Positions 7,752-15,695 of a stretch of DNA of 64,000 nt are shown piece after piece. Below the pieces are notes generated by a model. That model made no database searches. It worked only from the letters and a program-made list of their open reading frames with translations, and was not told the origin of the DNA. This DNA comes from an uncultured Bacilli bacterium (GTDB lineage Bacteria; Bacillota_I; Bacilli_A; RF39; UBA660): positions 8,562-72,561 of the forward strand of contig CANRDU010000004.1 in NCBI GenBank assembly GCA_947629445.1, given 5' to 3'. The translations under genes and the position numbers were made by a program. Numbering within the stretch: position 1 is the first letter of the stretch; each line of letters begins with the position of its first letter.

Positions 7752-7781
7752 AAAAAAACCTAGTTCCCGTTAAGAACTAGG
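7752..7781 (-). terminator. Rho-independent terminator of the 511-aa gene
   Basis: cctagttc / gaactagg stem; on the minus strand it is followed by T7. Confidence 0.7.
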
Positions 7782-7900
7782 TTATTTAATAAAAAATGGA
7801 GCAATTGTGTATCTCGTTTGAGAAACAATTACCTACAAATGTAATAAGAGATAAATCTTAATTACATACTCATTATATACTTAAACAAAAGATAATGCAA

Positions 7901-9436
7901 TTACTTCTCAGTATTATTTTTAATTAAATCTTTTATTTGATTTATGGATTTATTTATTTCTTTTATTTCATTATTATTAATTTCAATTTTAGTTTCTATA
8001 TTTTTTATTGAATTATCATTTTTATTTCTATATTCAAAAAATATACTTAATCCCAAAGCACCTATGGCAATAATAACTGATATAATTGAAATCCAAAATG
8101 AACTTTTAATATTATTAATATTGATTCTAAATTCATATTCTTTTTTTAAATCTAGCAATTGTTTATTATAATCATCATAAATATTTTTTATATTTTCAAA
8201 ACCTTTTATTATATATTCATCTTTATATTGAAATTTGTGAATATCAATACCATTAAATATGGAACTATATTTATGAAATTTTGAATTTAGTATTTCATAT
8301 TGCTTATAATTTTTTCTAATTTTATTAGTTTTGCAATTATACAACTTAATCTTTTCATTTGTAATATCTCCTTGCATCTCATCTAAAAGATAAAAGGCAA
8401 TAGAATTAATAAAAATATTTGTAAACTCATTACCAGTATGTTTTATTATATTTTCTTTTTCTTTAAGATAAAAAAGAACACTATTTGAACGATCTATTTT
8501 ATTTCGAGATATCATAATGTTGTACCACATAGTAGTATCAATGAACGAATCGCTTTCTCCACTTTTTCCAACACATACACTTATATTTTCAAGTTCTCTA
8601 GCTAAATAATGTTCTAATATTTCTAAATCTTGATAGAAAGATTCTGCTCTATTTGTTACTTTAAAGTTAGTTTGATATGTATTAATACTTATTGGTGGTT
8701 TATTTTTATAATCTAATTGAAGAGGTAGATATTTATTAAATAGTTTGTTGAATCTACATTTAAATTCTATAATAAAGTCTTCATAATCATTATTGCGTTT
8801 TTTCTTAACGGAAGTTCTGCTTCTACTATAAAGATACTTCTTTTTATATTTTAATTTATCATAAATAGTAGCTATATTTACTTTTTCATTAAATATATTG
8901 TTTATTTCGTTATTAAATTTTTCTGTAACTTTTAAATCAAAAGATATTCCTAAAAGGTCATTTGATATTTCAAAAATATGAATAATTATTAAATCACATA
9001 ATTCATATAGTTCATTATCCTTTGGTGATAATCTACATAATTCAGTACAACCATGATAGTTAGTTGAAGTTATATAACTATCTATACATTTTTTTAATTC
9101 TTTATGTCTAAGTTCTCCACCTAAATAGCCTTTTAAATAATTGTCTTTATATAGATTAATAATTCCTGGATATAAATTATGGCAATCATTTTTAGAAACA
9201 ATATTCAGTAAAAATATATCATTTAATCTTAAATATTTGTTTTTAGGCATGGTAGTATTTTTTTCATCATATGCTTTTTCAAAATTATCCTCCGTATATA
9301 GAAATTTTTCCATATCGGTTAATGGTATTATTTTTGATGTCTTATTTCTTATACTTTTTTTAATATTCATTACCTTATTTAAAAAAAGATTATCTTTATC
9401 TATTCTTTGCTTACTAAATTTATTTTTTATTTTCAT
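7901..9436 (-). CDS. Hypothetical 511-aa protein with one C-terminal TM helix and a coiled-coil tail
   Basis: Long ORF in extremely AT-rich DNA. TM SSFWISIISVIIAIGALGLSIFF lies near aa 445-467, followed by a 44-aa N/I/K-rich heptad-like tail. No catalytic motif recognised. Confidence 0.6.
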   Translation of the reverse strand: MKIKNKFSKQRIDKDNLFLNKVMNIKKSIRNKTSKIIPLTDMEKFLYTEDNFEKAYDEKNTTMPKNKYLRLNDIFLLNIVSKNDCHNLYPGIINLYKDNYLKGYLGGELRHKELKKCIDSYITSTNYHGCTELCRLSPKDNELYELCDLIIIHIFEISNDLLGISFDLKVTEKFNNEINNIFNEKVNIATIYDKLKYKKKYLYSRSRTSVKKKRNNDYEDFIIEFKCRFNKLFNKYLPLQLDYKNKPPISINTYQTNFKVTNRAESFYQDLEILEHYLARELENISVCVGKSGESDSFIDTTMWYNIMISRNKIDRSNSVLFYLKEKENIIKHTGNEFTNIFINSIAFYLLDEMQGDITNEKIKLYNCKTNKIRKNYKQYEILNSKFHKYSSIFNGIDIHKFQYKDEYIIKGFENIKNIYDDYNKQLLDLKKEYEFRININNIKSSFWISIISVIIAIGALGLSIFFEYRNKNDNSIKNIETKIEINNNEIKEINKSINQIKDLIKNNTEK

Positions 9437-9455
9437 TTCAAACCTCCCAATAATA

Positions 9456-9832
9456 TTATAAGTCTATATTCCACAAGCCAAGCTGTCCTTTAACTTCTTT
9501 ATCATTATTTATTTTTTTAGAATTAGTTAATTTCCAAGCATAACCAGTTCTATATTTAGAACCATATGCTATATTTTTTTCTGCAATTATTTTTTTGTTT
9601 AACTCATCATTTAATTCTAAACAATCTTCTATTTCTACTTCAGCTAGTATTTTTTTGATGGAAATTCTAAATTCAAATCCCTAAATTTTTCTAATTCTTT
9701 TTTATCAATTCCAGTTCCAGCATGAATTAGTATTTTGCCTCTATAATTGGTTTTCCAAGATCTAAATTCATATTTTTTTATACCTTCTGCAACAAGTGTA
9801 GCCCATGGTTGCTTTAAAGTTAATACTTTCAT
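9456..9832 (-). pseudogene. ASCH-domain gene interrupted by a frameshift at an A7 run
   Basis: The N-terminal 62 aa (MKVLTLKQPWATLVAEGIKKYEFRSW...ILIHAG) are a typical ASCH start and stop at 9644. The next frame continues IKKILAEVEIEDC...GYAWKLTNSKKI...VKGQLGLWNIDL to a stop at 9456-9458. One extra A in the run at about 9650-9656 would restore a ~125-aa ORF. Confidence 0.7.
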
Positions 9833-9895
9833 TGAACCACCTCAAAAACATTTTATCACAAATTCTTATAAAGGTTATTATATTACCTTGAATTA

Positions 9896-9904
9896 TGATA
9901 TAAT
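9896..9904 (+). promoter_or_regulatory. Extended -10 promoter element (TGaTATAAT) for the R-M operon
   Basis: tgatataat lies 26 nt upstream of the methyltransferase ATG. The -35 is weak. Confidence 0.4.
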
Positions 9905-9929
9905 TTATATGAGAGGATGGTGTCATATC

Positions 9930-13276: not shown

Positions 13277-15112
13277 TTACTCCTTAGAATCCTCTTTAAC
13301 AGTCTTTACAAACGAAGTAACAATTCCTAACTTAAACTTATTTGATAAGCTTTCAGGATTATCTATATCTTTAATAATAGGAATTAACTTTAAAACTTTT
13401 TCATCTTTTTCTAGATCAAAAAATATTTCTTCAGGCATATCTTCTAAACTAAATTCAAATGTTGGGTGAATATGTAGTCTAACACCACCAATATCTTTAA
13501 ACTCTTTCATGTAATCTTTTATCTGTGATTCCTTTAATGGATAACTAACATTTAACATTACTGATTTATCATTTGAAATAAATTCTACTGGAACTTGTGA
13601 TAAACCAAGTTCAGATAATCTACCAACTTTTTCAGTGAATAATGATTTTAATTTTATATCTATTAAATGTATCCCATTTGGATATCTATCATCTTTTTCA
13701 AAAGTAAGGGATTCAATATATTTAGCTATAAATTTTTGTTTATCTTCTTTAGTCATTGTTTGCCACTCTGTAAGAAACATTGAAACATCATTTCCGTTTT
13801 GCATAAATATTCTTTGAATATCCCTATTAGCCATAACTTTCTCTGGCGTAAATCTATTTCTATTTTTGAGATCTTGTTCTTTTTCTAATTGTTTAGTTAA
13901 TATATCAAGTTTTTCATTTATCACTTTTAAATCTTCTTTAAAGTCATTTAGCTCTACAACTTCAGACATGTAAGCCTTTTTAATTCTTTCTTTTTGTTTA
14001 GTAAGATTAATTATTTCTCTTTCAATATCAGATTTATCAACTTGTTTTTCTTTATCTGCAAAGAGTGGTAAGAATAATTCGTTATACTCATTATCAAATC
14101 TTAATAATTGACCAACAATCTTTTCAAATTCTTCTTCAACATAAGACTCTCTAATGTTTTCATGGCAATCTTCACAATTGTAATAAACATATTTTCTTCT
14201 TTTTCCACCAGATCCTTTGCATTTCATAATCTTGCCACACTTAGGACATTTAAGTTTTTGAAAGAAAGTATAAATTCTATCTCTAGTATAAGTTCTTTGA
14301 TTAATAATCTTTTGTGCTTGGCATTCTTCCCAAATATATCTTGGTATAATTGGATCAACAACATTCATATAAATAACTGGTTCAACATTTTTCCATTCTT
14401 TAAGTCTTTTATACATTTCATAATCCCCCATGTATAAACGATTATTTATTATTCTTTCTATATGAGTATCTTTCCAATTTTTATTTAATACTTTTTCTTC
14501 ATTAAAGATATTTGATATTTGTAAAAATGTTTTACCTTGTAAATATAAATCAAATACTCTCTTAACAATAGGAGCAGTAGCTGGATCAATTATTGTTTTT
14601 CTATTTCCATCCTTTTTAAATCCCAAAGCAACTTGTCCAGGTAAATGACCTGATTTAATAGCACCATTTAAACCAAACTTTGTTCTTTCTGATACTATTT
14701 CAATTTCAAGTTGTGATAAGACAGTAAGCATTCTTACAAAGAATCTACCATTAGCAGTAGAGGTATTAACATCATCTCTATCACATACTAGGTAAGTATT
14801 ATATTTTTCTAGTTGTGAAATTAGCTCTTCTAAATCTCTAACTGAACGAGTAACTCTATCAAGTTTATAAGCAACGATATAATTAATTTTCCCATCTTTC
14901 ATATCTTTTAACATTTCTTGAAACTTTGGTCTATGTTCCATATCTTTAGCTGATATACCCGCATCACAATATACTTTATATACTTCATAACATTTATAAT
15001 CACATAATTGTCTTAACTTTTCTTCTTGTTCTCCTAAACTAAATCCTTCACGAGCTTGATCTTCAGTTGATACACGAATATAAATACCTGCAACTTTTCT
15101 TTCTTCTTCCAT
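13277..15112 (-). CDS. Large serine recombinase (611 aa)
   Basis: N-terminal resolvase catalytic domain ([12 protein letters not shown]...YKLDRVTRS), a recombinase domain, a Cys-rich zinc ribbon (CPKCG...CEDCH) and a coiled-coil C-terminus. Confidence 0.9.
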
Positions 15113-15130
15113 TTAAACCTCCTTATTACT

Positions 15131-15182
15131 AAAAAAGAGGAGACAATAGTATCTAGTAAGGTCTAAATACTACTGACTCCTC
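15131..15182 (-). terminator. Strong terminator-like hairpin immediately upstream of the recombinase gene
   Basis: On the minus strand: gaggagtcagtagtat(14 nt)atactattgtctcctc, 16 bp with one mismatch, followed by T6. It ends 19 nt before the recombinase ATG region. Confidence 0.5.
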
Positions 15183-15323
15183 ATTAAGTTCAATATTATA
15201 AAATTTTATATGTTTGTATTTATAATTCATAGATGTACCTCCATTTCTAGAGTTACCTCTTTCATTGGTTATTTATAATATCACTTTTTAAATATTTGTC
15301 AATTCCTTATTGAGGGAATACTA

Positions 15324-15605
15324 TTAAGAGCATTTAGCTAGTTTAAAGTATTTTTCAAGTTCAGATAAATTATGTTTATCATTTAGAGTATTAACATAGA
15401 AAGTATCAATTCCATTAAAGAACAAGAATGTATAATTATTAATAATTACTTTATGTGGATCTACATAAGCAAGATTAGATGGTTCTAATCTAATTAAATG
15501 ACCTTTTTCTAATCTTATAGATGTAGAAGTATAATTCTTAGCCCAATCAATCTTTTTCTTTAAATCAGGGCTTAAATCAAGTTTTTCTTTAATAATATTT
15601 AACAT
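15324..15605 (-). CDS. Hypothetical small protein (93 aa from the ATG at 15605)
   Basis: The ORF is open to 15629, but that GTG abuts the tRNA terminator T-run. The internal ATG (MLNIIKEKL) is more plausible. Confidence 0.4.
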   Translation of the reverse strand: MLNIIKEKLDLSPDLKKKIDWAKNYTSTSIRLEKGHLIRLEPSNLAYVDPHKVIINNYTFLFFNGIDTFYVNTLNDKHNLSELEKYFKLAKCS

Positions 15606-15629
15606 ATCATCACAACCTTTCTTAGACAC

Positions 15630-15656
15630 AAAAAAACTTAATTATTTCTAATTAAG
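15630..15656 (-). terminator. Terminator of tRNA-Gly
   Basis: cttaatta / taattaag stem followed by T7 on the minus strand, 40 nt downstream of the tRNA 3' end. Confidence 0.6.
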
Positions 15657-15695
15657 CTTTATCTCAACATCGGTTGTTCCGACGATTTTTACAAA

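Follow-up and report, generated by a model that had tools for sequence, protein, structure and literature searches.

Positions 7803 to 15701 of a 64,000-nucleotide stretch of DNA from an uncultured Bacilli bacterium (contig CANRDU010000004.1; the whole stretch is referred to as the window) are best read as an integrative mobilizable element (IME), inserted by a serine recombinase at the 3' end of a tRNA-Gly gene, within its final six bases. We put the probability of this reading at about 85%. Together with relatives that are widespread in gut bacteria, the element forms an undescribed family of small mobilizable islands, whose members pair a large serine recombinase (LSR) with a small partner protein that we call p101. 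Contigs identical to the window are present in ENA metagenome assemblies and in rabbit-gut runs, and the closest genomes in a species-representative collection are metagenome-assembled genomes (MAGs) of "uncultured Bacilli bacterium", with ~60% identity in the flanking DHH protein.

Element ends and the tRNA-Gly target

Both ends of the element are marked by a direct repeat of 6 to 9 nucleotides that corresponds to the 3' end of the tRNA. At attR, the core TGGAGC comprises the CCA end, the discriminator base, and the last two bases of the acceptor stem, to which the longer repeat AAATGGAGC adds three downstream bases, and the element end beside the tRNA restores the last six bases of the gene. 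The terminator of the tRNA gene now lies 7.9 kb from it, beyond the far end of the element: in a reconstructed empty site, made by joining the flanks, tRNA-Gly is directly followed by the hairpin at 7757-7783, and in a relative with an element-free site (L017) tRNA-Gly is also directly followed by a terminator. The reconstructed junction sequences are CGACGATTTTTACAAATGGAGCAATTGTGTATCTCG for the attP joint and AATAAAAAATGGAGCGGGTGATGGG / AATAAAAAATGGAGCGGGTGATGGGAATCGG for the repaired site.

Three independent lines of evidence fix the boundaries. First, in runs X5-X8, which sample a strain with near-identical flanks, the flanks are covered at ~15x, with a depth of ~0 over 7803-15690 at >=98% likeness; the X6 contig matches 7345-7802 perfectly and then diverges, and a contig from another run (L011, Logan) likewise departs from the window exactly after 7802. 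Second, contigs from bovine gut runs that match the recombinase side end exactly at 15701. Third, a scan of metagenome contigs for the recombinase returned 77 loci with related recombinases. In 19 close loci, the sequence is common from GCTCCA|TTTGTAAAAATCGTCGG onward, and what lies upstream of GCTCCA (TGGAGC on the opposite strand) varies: either a tRNA-Gly gene, of anticodon TCC or GCC and with stems that differ, or a second element's far end. The motif at the far end, GTTTCTCAAACGAGATACACAATT|GCTCCA, occurs in 13 metagenomic loci, with unrelated flanks beyond it that often contain a terminator hairpin. All examined junctions break at GCTCCA. Hence, the element spans 7803-15701 with a TGGAGC core.

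The initial annotation had bounded the block at 7752 and 15660 and had regarded its ends as undefinable by eye, given the 2-nt crossover core of serine recombinases; neither view survives, as the 6- to 9-nt repeat marks both ends. Of its two options for the left end, the one near 7.75 kb lies close to the actual junction (7802/7803), and the other, which included the sipW operon down to ~4.8 kb, falls away. Comparison with related genomes, which it had suggested for locating the attachment sites, did yield both the junctions and the element-free L017 site.

The sequences adjoining the core are conserved in other loci as well. The distal-end arm matches at 22 to 24 of 24 positions in 13 metagenomic loci (24/24 in 12 of them), and compared with the tRNA-side arm it gives an inverted-repeat match of 15/24 that is centered on the A of TGGAGC (chance ~0.002 per register). 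The inverted repeat just inside attR (CGTCGG...CCGATG) takes the variant form CGTCGC...GCGATG in other subfamilies, with pairing kept, and may represent a protein-binding site or a hairpin. At the far end, ~100 bp are kept irrespective of cargo (far ends L023-L095). This segment includes an outward-facing promoter-like site, with a TG-extended -10 in some loci, which the consensus promoter scanner did not call.

The site in X5-X8 could at first sight be taken as empty. We rejected this view, as the 20 letters after 7802 (GAGTGTCGTAGTTATCTACA) belong to the distal end of an L028-type member of the family. Read as the reverse complement, these letters in X6 correspond to the "B-type" far end of L028, L033, and L073, and in X5-X8 the letters before 15696 match an L015-type element end, so that a different element occupies the site. 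Since the X6 ends match other family types, strains with near-identical flanks hold different family members at the same site. Across the family, we observe at least two far-end types (A and B) and several tRNA-side end types.

The p101 gene lies inside the element, and the sipW/tasA-like operon lies outside it. Inclusion of this operon was rejected on two grounds: the sequence up to 7802 is identical in strains lacking the element, and the GC content at third codon positions (GC3) is host-like despite the low overall GC. The sipW / TasA-like / DUF5305 operon (4651-7802) is itself AT-rich (24.4% GC) and is present in strains without this element; it may be an older island or merely a secreted-protein locus.

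In composition, the element stands apart from its surroundings, with 24.8% GC versus 32.6% for the 48 kb to its right. Host segments of 7.9 kb range from 31.5 to 34.0%, with none below 31.5%, and GC3 is 11-13% in element genes versus 19.5-23.5% in housekeeping genes, in agreement with the AT-richness initially noted by eye. The tRNA-Gly gene had been described as self-contained, with its own promoter and terminator. The promoter matches this description fully, whereas the gene proves to be the integration target and the hairpin now downstream of it is borne by the element. In an Rfam scan of the element, nothing but the tRNA scored.

Integration and mobilization genes and their cargo

Seven open reading frames (ORFs) lie between 7.8 and 15.7 kb (Table 1). 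The arrangement proposed at the outset, an LSR head-to-tail with a MobV relaxase, holds for both domains and catalytic motifs, and Pfam classifies the two proteins as a large serine recombinase and as Mob_Pre (MOBV), respectively.

Table 1. Coordinates of the element, its genes, and associated sequence features in the window.
Feature	Position	Strand	Basis or remark
Displaced original intrinsic terminator of tRNA-Gly	7757-7783	-	Terminator scan; host DNA just outside the element
attL repeat copy AAATGGAGC	7794-7802	.	Family-wide core TGGAGC at 7797-7802
IME	7803-15701	.	7,899 bp including one core copy; junction comparisons, read/contig depth, L027 alignment
Distal-end recombinase arm (P') AATTGTGTATCTCGTTTGAGAAAC	7803-7826	.	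Always abuts the core
Conserved distal-end segment	7839-7900	-	Alignment of elements with unrelated cargo
Inverted repeat ATGTAAT-N15-ATTACAT	7839-7867	-	Within the distal-end segment
Outward-facing promoter-like site	-10 TATAAT 7872-7877; -35-like TTGCAT 7895-7900	-	Alignment
p511, 511-aa protein, one C-terminal transmembrane helix	7901-9436	-	Cargo; no significant profile match
ASCH-domain fragment, 62 aa	9644-9832	-	Pfam ASCH 7e-7, model positions 1-38 of 103
C5 cytosine DNA methyltransferase, M.HhaI-like	9930-10892	+	Pfam DNA_methylase 3.6e-99; PDB M.HhaI 4e-113 full length
Type II restriction endonuclease, R.HhaI-like	10885-11739	+	PADLOC REase_II 8e-38; PDB 6UKE 3.8e-34
MOBV-type (Mob_Pre) relaxase, 470 aa	11748-13160	-	Pfam Mob_Pre 7e-13, 49.3 bits vs cutoff 25.5
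Candidate origin of transfer (oriT)	13200-13262	-	Hairpin, conserved box, and third arm copy
Large serine recombinase (LSR, integrase), 611 aa	13277-15112	-	Pfam, NCBIfam, PHROG
Recombinase leader	15128-15302	-	Promoter, mini-ORF, and hairpin/T-run
23-nt hairpin and T-run	15128-15185	-	Directly before the recombinase ribosome-binding site
25-codon mini-ORF MNYKYKHIKFYNIELNEESVVFRPY	15153-15230	-	Runs into/ends inside the leader hairpin
Recombinase promoter TTGACA-16-TGnTATTAT	15275-15302	-	Promoter scan
p101, small conserved partner of the recombinase family	15324-15605	-	Likely product 93 aa from ATG at 15605
Element-borne features just inside attR	15630-15686	-	Inverted repeat and AT-rich hairpin
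AT-rich hairpin and T7	15630-15656	-	Element-borne, now 3' of the tRNA
Inverted repeat ATCGTCGG-AACA-ACCGATG	15668-15686	-	10-30 nt inside the tRNA-side end
attR repeat copy AAATGGAGC	15693-15701	.	TGGAGC at 15696-15701
Target tRNA-Gly(TCC) gene	15696-15769	-	ARAGORN; Rfam tRNA 67 bits
tRNA-Gly promoter	15783-15811	-	TTGACA-17-TATAAT, 12/12 consensus positions

The recombinase matches the Pfam families Resolvase (1.8e-33) and Recombinase (7.7e-17), both above their cutoffs. Its match to Zn_ribbon_recom (1.3e-4, 22.7 bits) falls below the cutoff of 25.3, and the protein carries the zinc-ribbon pattern CPKC-N19-CEDC. The catalytic domain aligns with that of TP901-1 integrase, with the RVS motif (R13, S15) in place. 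The best NCBIfam match is CcrB (6.4e-42) at 144 versus 900 bits, with all Ccr equivalog cutoffs missed by far, and searches of phage and plasmid proteins returned only recombinases at <=34% identity. No ORF of the element matches a tyrosine recombinase (phage-integrase family) in Pfam, NCBIfam, or PHROG. Upstream of the gene, a hairpin followed by a T-run precedes the ribosome-binding site in all five loci that were folded, including relatives of 43-69% identity, and is visible in an alignment of 18 loci. Together with the mini-ORF that runs into it, this leader suggests attenuation and, as judged from its sequence, looks like a translation-coupled attenuator.

A p101 homolog is located within 450 nt upstream of the recombinase start in 65 of 75 cases, down to ~40% recombinase identity, and a p101 profile search retrieves 340 clusters (50% identity) at E<=1e-3. 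The protein has no match in Pfam, NCBIfam, PHROG, or PADLOC. Its predicted model is of high confidence (pLDDT 90), and a fold search in the PDB and BFVD returned nothing better than E ~0.3; long members of the p101 family show no consistent extra domain. We consider p101 a candidate directionality or accessory factor.

In the relaxase, HLDETSPHMH aligns to HLDESTPHMH of MobM (PDB: 4LVI), so that the HxDExxPHxH metal-site motif is intact, and HDFR at residues 51-54, read from the sequence, is a candidate for the N-terminal HxxR motif with the catalytic histidine. The protein is 33-38% identical to Mob proteins of small plasmids, and 336 of the 368 matching plasmids are predicted to be mobilizable. 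Upstream of mob, a perfect 10- to 13-bp hairpin ends 2-4 nt before a conserved box, CTAGGGGGTTA (13220-13230). This hairpin is found in 13 of 13 loci, with a stem sequence that varies between subfamilies and pairing that is kept, and hairpin and box together persist across Mob proteins down to ~53% identity. A third copy of the arm after the box would place the box in an alternative loop. Folding was performed per sequence; RNAalifold on the alignment gave no consensus because of alignment gaps. In MOBV systems, oriT usually lies directly upstream of mob, and the hairpin and box have the look and position expected of a MOBV oriT.

Profile searches of the seven element ORFs gave no match to type IV secretion system (T4SS) or coupling protein (T4CP) families. 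Ten large ORFs from elsewhere in the window were also tested: eight are housekeeping genes and two have no Pfam match, so that neither a T4SS ATPase nor a coupling protein was found among them, with a further five ORFs of >=330 aa left unscanned. Within this scope, the initial statement that such genes are absent is upheld. Elsewhere in the window, a sigma-70 family protein (33324-36212) is unusually long at 962 aa, with regions 2-4 at residues 226-445 and ~500 residues after region 4 that have no Pfam match.

The remaining genes make up the cargo, which had been described as a restriction-modification pair and an operon of an ASCH gene with that of a 511-aa protein. The first part is borne out by the HhaI-like matches, whereas the ASCH ORF turns out to be only a 62-aa fragment. 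The adjacent homologs of M.HhaI and R.HhaI form an HhaI-type type II restriction-modification pair and, given this likeness, their recognition site is probably GCGC. The ASCH fragment also matches phrog_3193 (positions 85-136 of 269) and is 97% conserved in L027 and L033, even where p511 has drifted to 70%. For p511, searches gave no Pfam, NCBIfam, or PADLOC match and one marginal PHROG match at E 0.009. Its 34 homologs are all unnamed proteins from "Bacilli bacterium" MAGs. The AlphaFold model (pLDDT 82) has CorA structures as all of its top PDB matches in Foldseek (E ~2e-4, probability ~1), with TM-scores of only 0.2-0.3. This model makes p511 a possible CorA-like membrane protein, perhaps a membrane effector, that may have the ASCH fragment as its partner. 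The cargo as a whole could act as defence, as an addiction module, or as both.

Two sets of loci carry altered methylase genes. In L010 (sample ERZ27249148), the element is identical to that of the window except for the methylase gene (equivalent to 10000-11093), which is ~9% divergent and 93% identical to the L027 allele. A single divergent methylase in an otherwise identical element suggests mosaic recombination or allelic exchange between related elements. In L001/L008 (sample ERZ27249643), a 7-nt deletion (TTAGTTA, 10234-10240) frameshifts the methylase, and the endonuclease gene looks intact; the deletion is either a real variant or an error of an assembly at 3x coverage.

A family of related islands

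The comparative loci add evidence of movement to the gene set, composition, and tRNA-Gly abutment on which the first proposal of a mobilizable element was built and which all stand. Among 54 p101-recombinase pairs with enough upstream sequence, 28 have a tRNA gene within 260 nt, namely 18 Gly-TCC, 8 Gly-GCC, 1 Trp, and 1 Leu, so that 26 of the 54 pairs sit at a tRNA-Gly. Several of the inspected pairs without a nearby tRNA abut the far end of another element, forming tandem arrays.

In a different setting, L027 holds a copy of this element that aligns over 7,981 bp (window 15770-7796) with 91.8% nucleotide identity and has its cargo in common, from the restriction-modification pair to the ASCH fragment and p511. 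The copy is placed behind a tRNA-Cys/tRNA-Gly(GCC) pair in a locus that otherwise has no match to the window, and a second small element follows the first in tandem. Units separated by GCTCCA in tandem arrays at one tRNA-Gly are seen at L027 17317-19522, at the far ends of L023, L024, and L026, and at L033 933-960.

Further afield, bovine, human-gut, and digester metagenomes contain versions of the backbone (mob, recombinase, p101, and both ends) that are 80-97% identical and lack the cargo seen here. Among the cargo genes of relatives are those for a tyrosyl-tRNA synthetase, a glutamyl-tRNA-synthetase-like protein, a NUDIX protein, a 1,076-aa hydrolase, and regulators with membrane proteins. 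The aminoacyl-tRNA synthetases (tyrosyl-like in L026 13370-15736, glutamyl-like in L064 1281-2954) are unusual cargo for a small mobilizable island. A search with the backbone DNA found no match in 72,556 plasmids.

Proposed mechanism, alternatives, and known systems

We propose that the recombinase exchanges strands at a central dinucleotide within TGGAGC, between the attP of a circular form and the tRNA end serving as attB. With their imperfect inverted repeat (15/24), the attP arms fit a serine-recombinase site in which a central GA or AG serves as the crossover; the hexamer is common to all partners, which limits placement of the crossover to the 6-nt core. Integration would regenerate the tRNA end and put the element-borne AT-rich hairpin and T7 (15630-15656) behind it, and the reverse reaction, perhaps assisted by p101, would excise the circle. 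Mob would then nick the hairpin-plus-box oriT upstream of its gene, and a conjugative element resident in the donor would supply the mating pore. The leader hairpin and T-run appear to gate expression of the recombinase. Only in the circle would transcription from the far-end promoter-like site cross the joint and proceed toward p101 and the recombinase, in a manner resembling that of Tn4451.

Several observations weigh against the reading as an IME. The 9-mer repeat is weak evidence when taken alone, with four copies in the window versus 0.46 expected. The relaxase scores 31.9 bits against the NCBIfam MobV equivalog, below the cutoff of 100, and oriT and its nick site are putative assignments. 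Since p101 has no recognizable fold, the role proposed for it is drawn from its position. No helper conjugative element is known for the uncultured host, and none is found in the window. A search of assemblies, comprising the fetched loci and viral contigs, did not return the exact attP string, and the X1-X4 contigs contain the integrated form only, with neither an excised circle nor an empty site of the exact strain, although contigs cannot show rare forms.

The missing circle and empty-site junction, in contigs, fetched loci, and viral contigs alike, would also be expected of a fossil island that entered by the same route and no longer excises or transfers in this strain. The fragmentary ASCH ORF would suit such an island, as would the decayed copies among the relatives: in L016, a frameshifted recombinase and a p101 homolog adjoin host genes, in L018 such a homolog is present without a recombinase, and L033 is a deletion derivative. 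We nevertheless consider a fossil improbable. All backbone ORFs are full length with catalytic motifs kept, both end motifs are identical to the family consensus, near-identical elements occur in other hosts, and the site is polymorphic among strains with near-identical flanks; the failure to see excision carries less weight, as contigs cannot reveal it when rare.

Alternatively, the element could integrate as proposed without being mobilized by conjugation, with Mob_Pre serving another role (e.g., plasmid-type site-specific recombination) and spread occurring by transformation or transduction. Many p101-recombinase relatives, such as a group of ~52% identity (L044-L063), have no Mob gene within 10 kb, and both the unmet MobV equivalog cutoff and the lack of a known helper agree with this explanation. 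It is at odds with the intact HxDExxPHxH motif, with the typing of 336/368 plasmids with a similar Mob as mobilizable, and with the hairpin and box conserved directly upstream of mob down to ~53% Mob identity, and we regard it as a slim prospect, a little slimmer than that of a fossil. That the block is instead an integrated small plasmid, a phage satellite, or a prophage remnant is very improbable: Mob_Pre proteins are typical of small rolling-circle plasmids and the best PHROG match of the recombinase is a phage integrase family (phrog_95, 2.5e-107), but profile searches of the seven element ORFs detect no Rep, capsid, terminase, portal, or other phage gene, the plasmid collection gave no DNA match, and phage recombinases are <30% identical to that of the element.

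Among known systems, the IME most resembles Tn4451/Tn4453 of Clostridium perfringens and C. difficile (TnpX and TnpZ) in its organization. In both cases, a small (6-8 kb) Firmicute element has a single LSR at one of its ends, cargo, and a Mob/Pre (MOBV) relaxase gene preceded by a cis site (putative in the element), and lacks a T4SS, a likeness of gene set and description; the plasmid matches of the element proteins include neither TnpX nor TnpZ. In Tn4451, for which IncP plasmids have been used as conjugative helpers, the recombinase makes a circular intermediate whose joint activates recombinase expression, and the outward promoter-like site at the far end of the element would do the same job. 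The two differ in targeting. Tn4451 has low target specificity, inserting at GA dinucleotides, and requires no additional protein (PMC5704250), whereas the family described here is site-specific for the 3' end of tRNA-Gly (26/54 loci, with junctions at GCTCCA) and has in addition the p101 partner gene and the leader hairpin before the recombinase gene.

The element also shares traits with the site-specific serine-recombinase IMEs known from streptococci and other Firmicutes (e.g., in rumA or in genes of integrative and conjugative elements), namely a lone serine integrase, direct repeats of short length, high specificity for the insertion site, and a relaxase that is often MOBV (PMC5704250, PMC5357655). 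Serine-recombinase IMEs have, however, been described as inserting with low specificity or inside protein-coding genes that they disrupt, and targeting of tRNA 3' ends by IMEs has been attributed to tyrosine integrases (PMC5704250). The element, unlike the gene-disrupting IMEs, has as its target the final 6 nt of a tRNA gene, which its insertion restores. In this it is similar to Islander-type tRNA islands, which integrate at tRNA 3' ends with the gene restored, leave a displaced fragment at the far end, and form tandem arrays (PMC4383910). All of these traits recur in the family, but with a serine recombinase in place of a tyrosine integrase and with a repeat of 6-9 nt rather than the tens of nucleotides usual for tyrosine systems.

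The nearest analogy among serine systems is provided by staphylococcal cassette chromosome elements (SCCmec/SCC). Their recombinases (CcrAB, CcrC) are LSRs, their insertion at the 3' end of a conserved gene leaves that gene active, and tandem composites of them arise. The element differs from them in its target (a tRNA gene vs rlmH), in having one recombinase gene rather than a pair, in the presence of a relaxase, and in Ccr scores far below cutoff. A search of open-access text found no literature joining "large serine recombinase" and "tRNA-Gly".

A broader proposal, which we offer tentatively and do not favor, is that the p101-recombinase pair represents an undescribed serine-integrase system that has converged on the strategy of tyrosine integrases. 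It would target and restore the near-universal GCTCCA end of tRNA-Gly across many Firmicute hosts, with p101 as a dedicated directionality or accessory factor and with a leader-peptide attenuator and a joint-spanning promoter restricting recombinase expression to the circle. If true, the p101-recombinase system would be a compact, broad-host-range integration module.

For the gut "Bacilli" of rabbits, cattle, and humans, the finding means that islands of this family shuttle variable cargo between genomes, including restriction-modification systems, aminoacyl-tRNA synthetases, hydrolases, and proteins without assigned function. They do so with a serine recombinase that uses and repairs a tRNA 3' end, a behavior assigned to tyrosine integrases by PMC5704250. 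Because the target hexamer is present in most CCA-encoding tRNA-Gly genes, the recombinase together with its att arms (~25 nt on each side) is a candidate integration tool for poorly tractable Firmicutes, and p101, through its linkage to the recombinase, stands out as a specific candidate for a directionality factor of a new kind.

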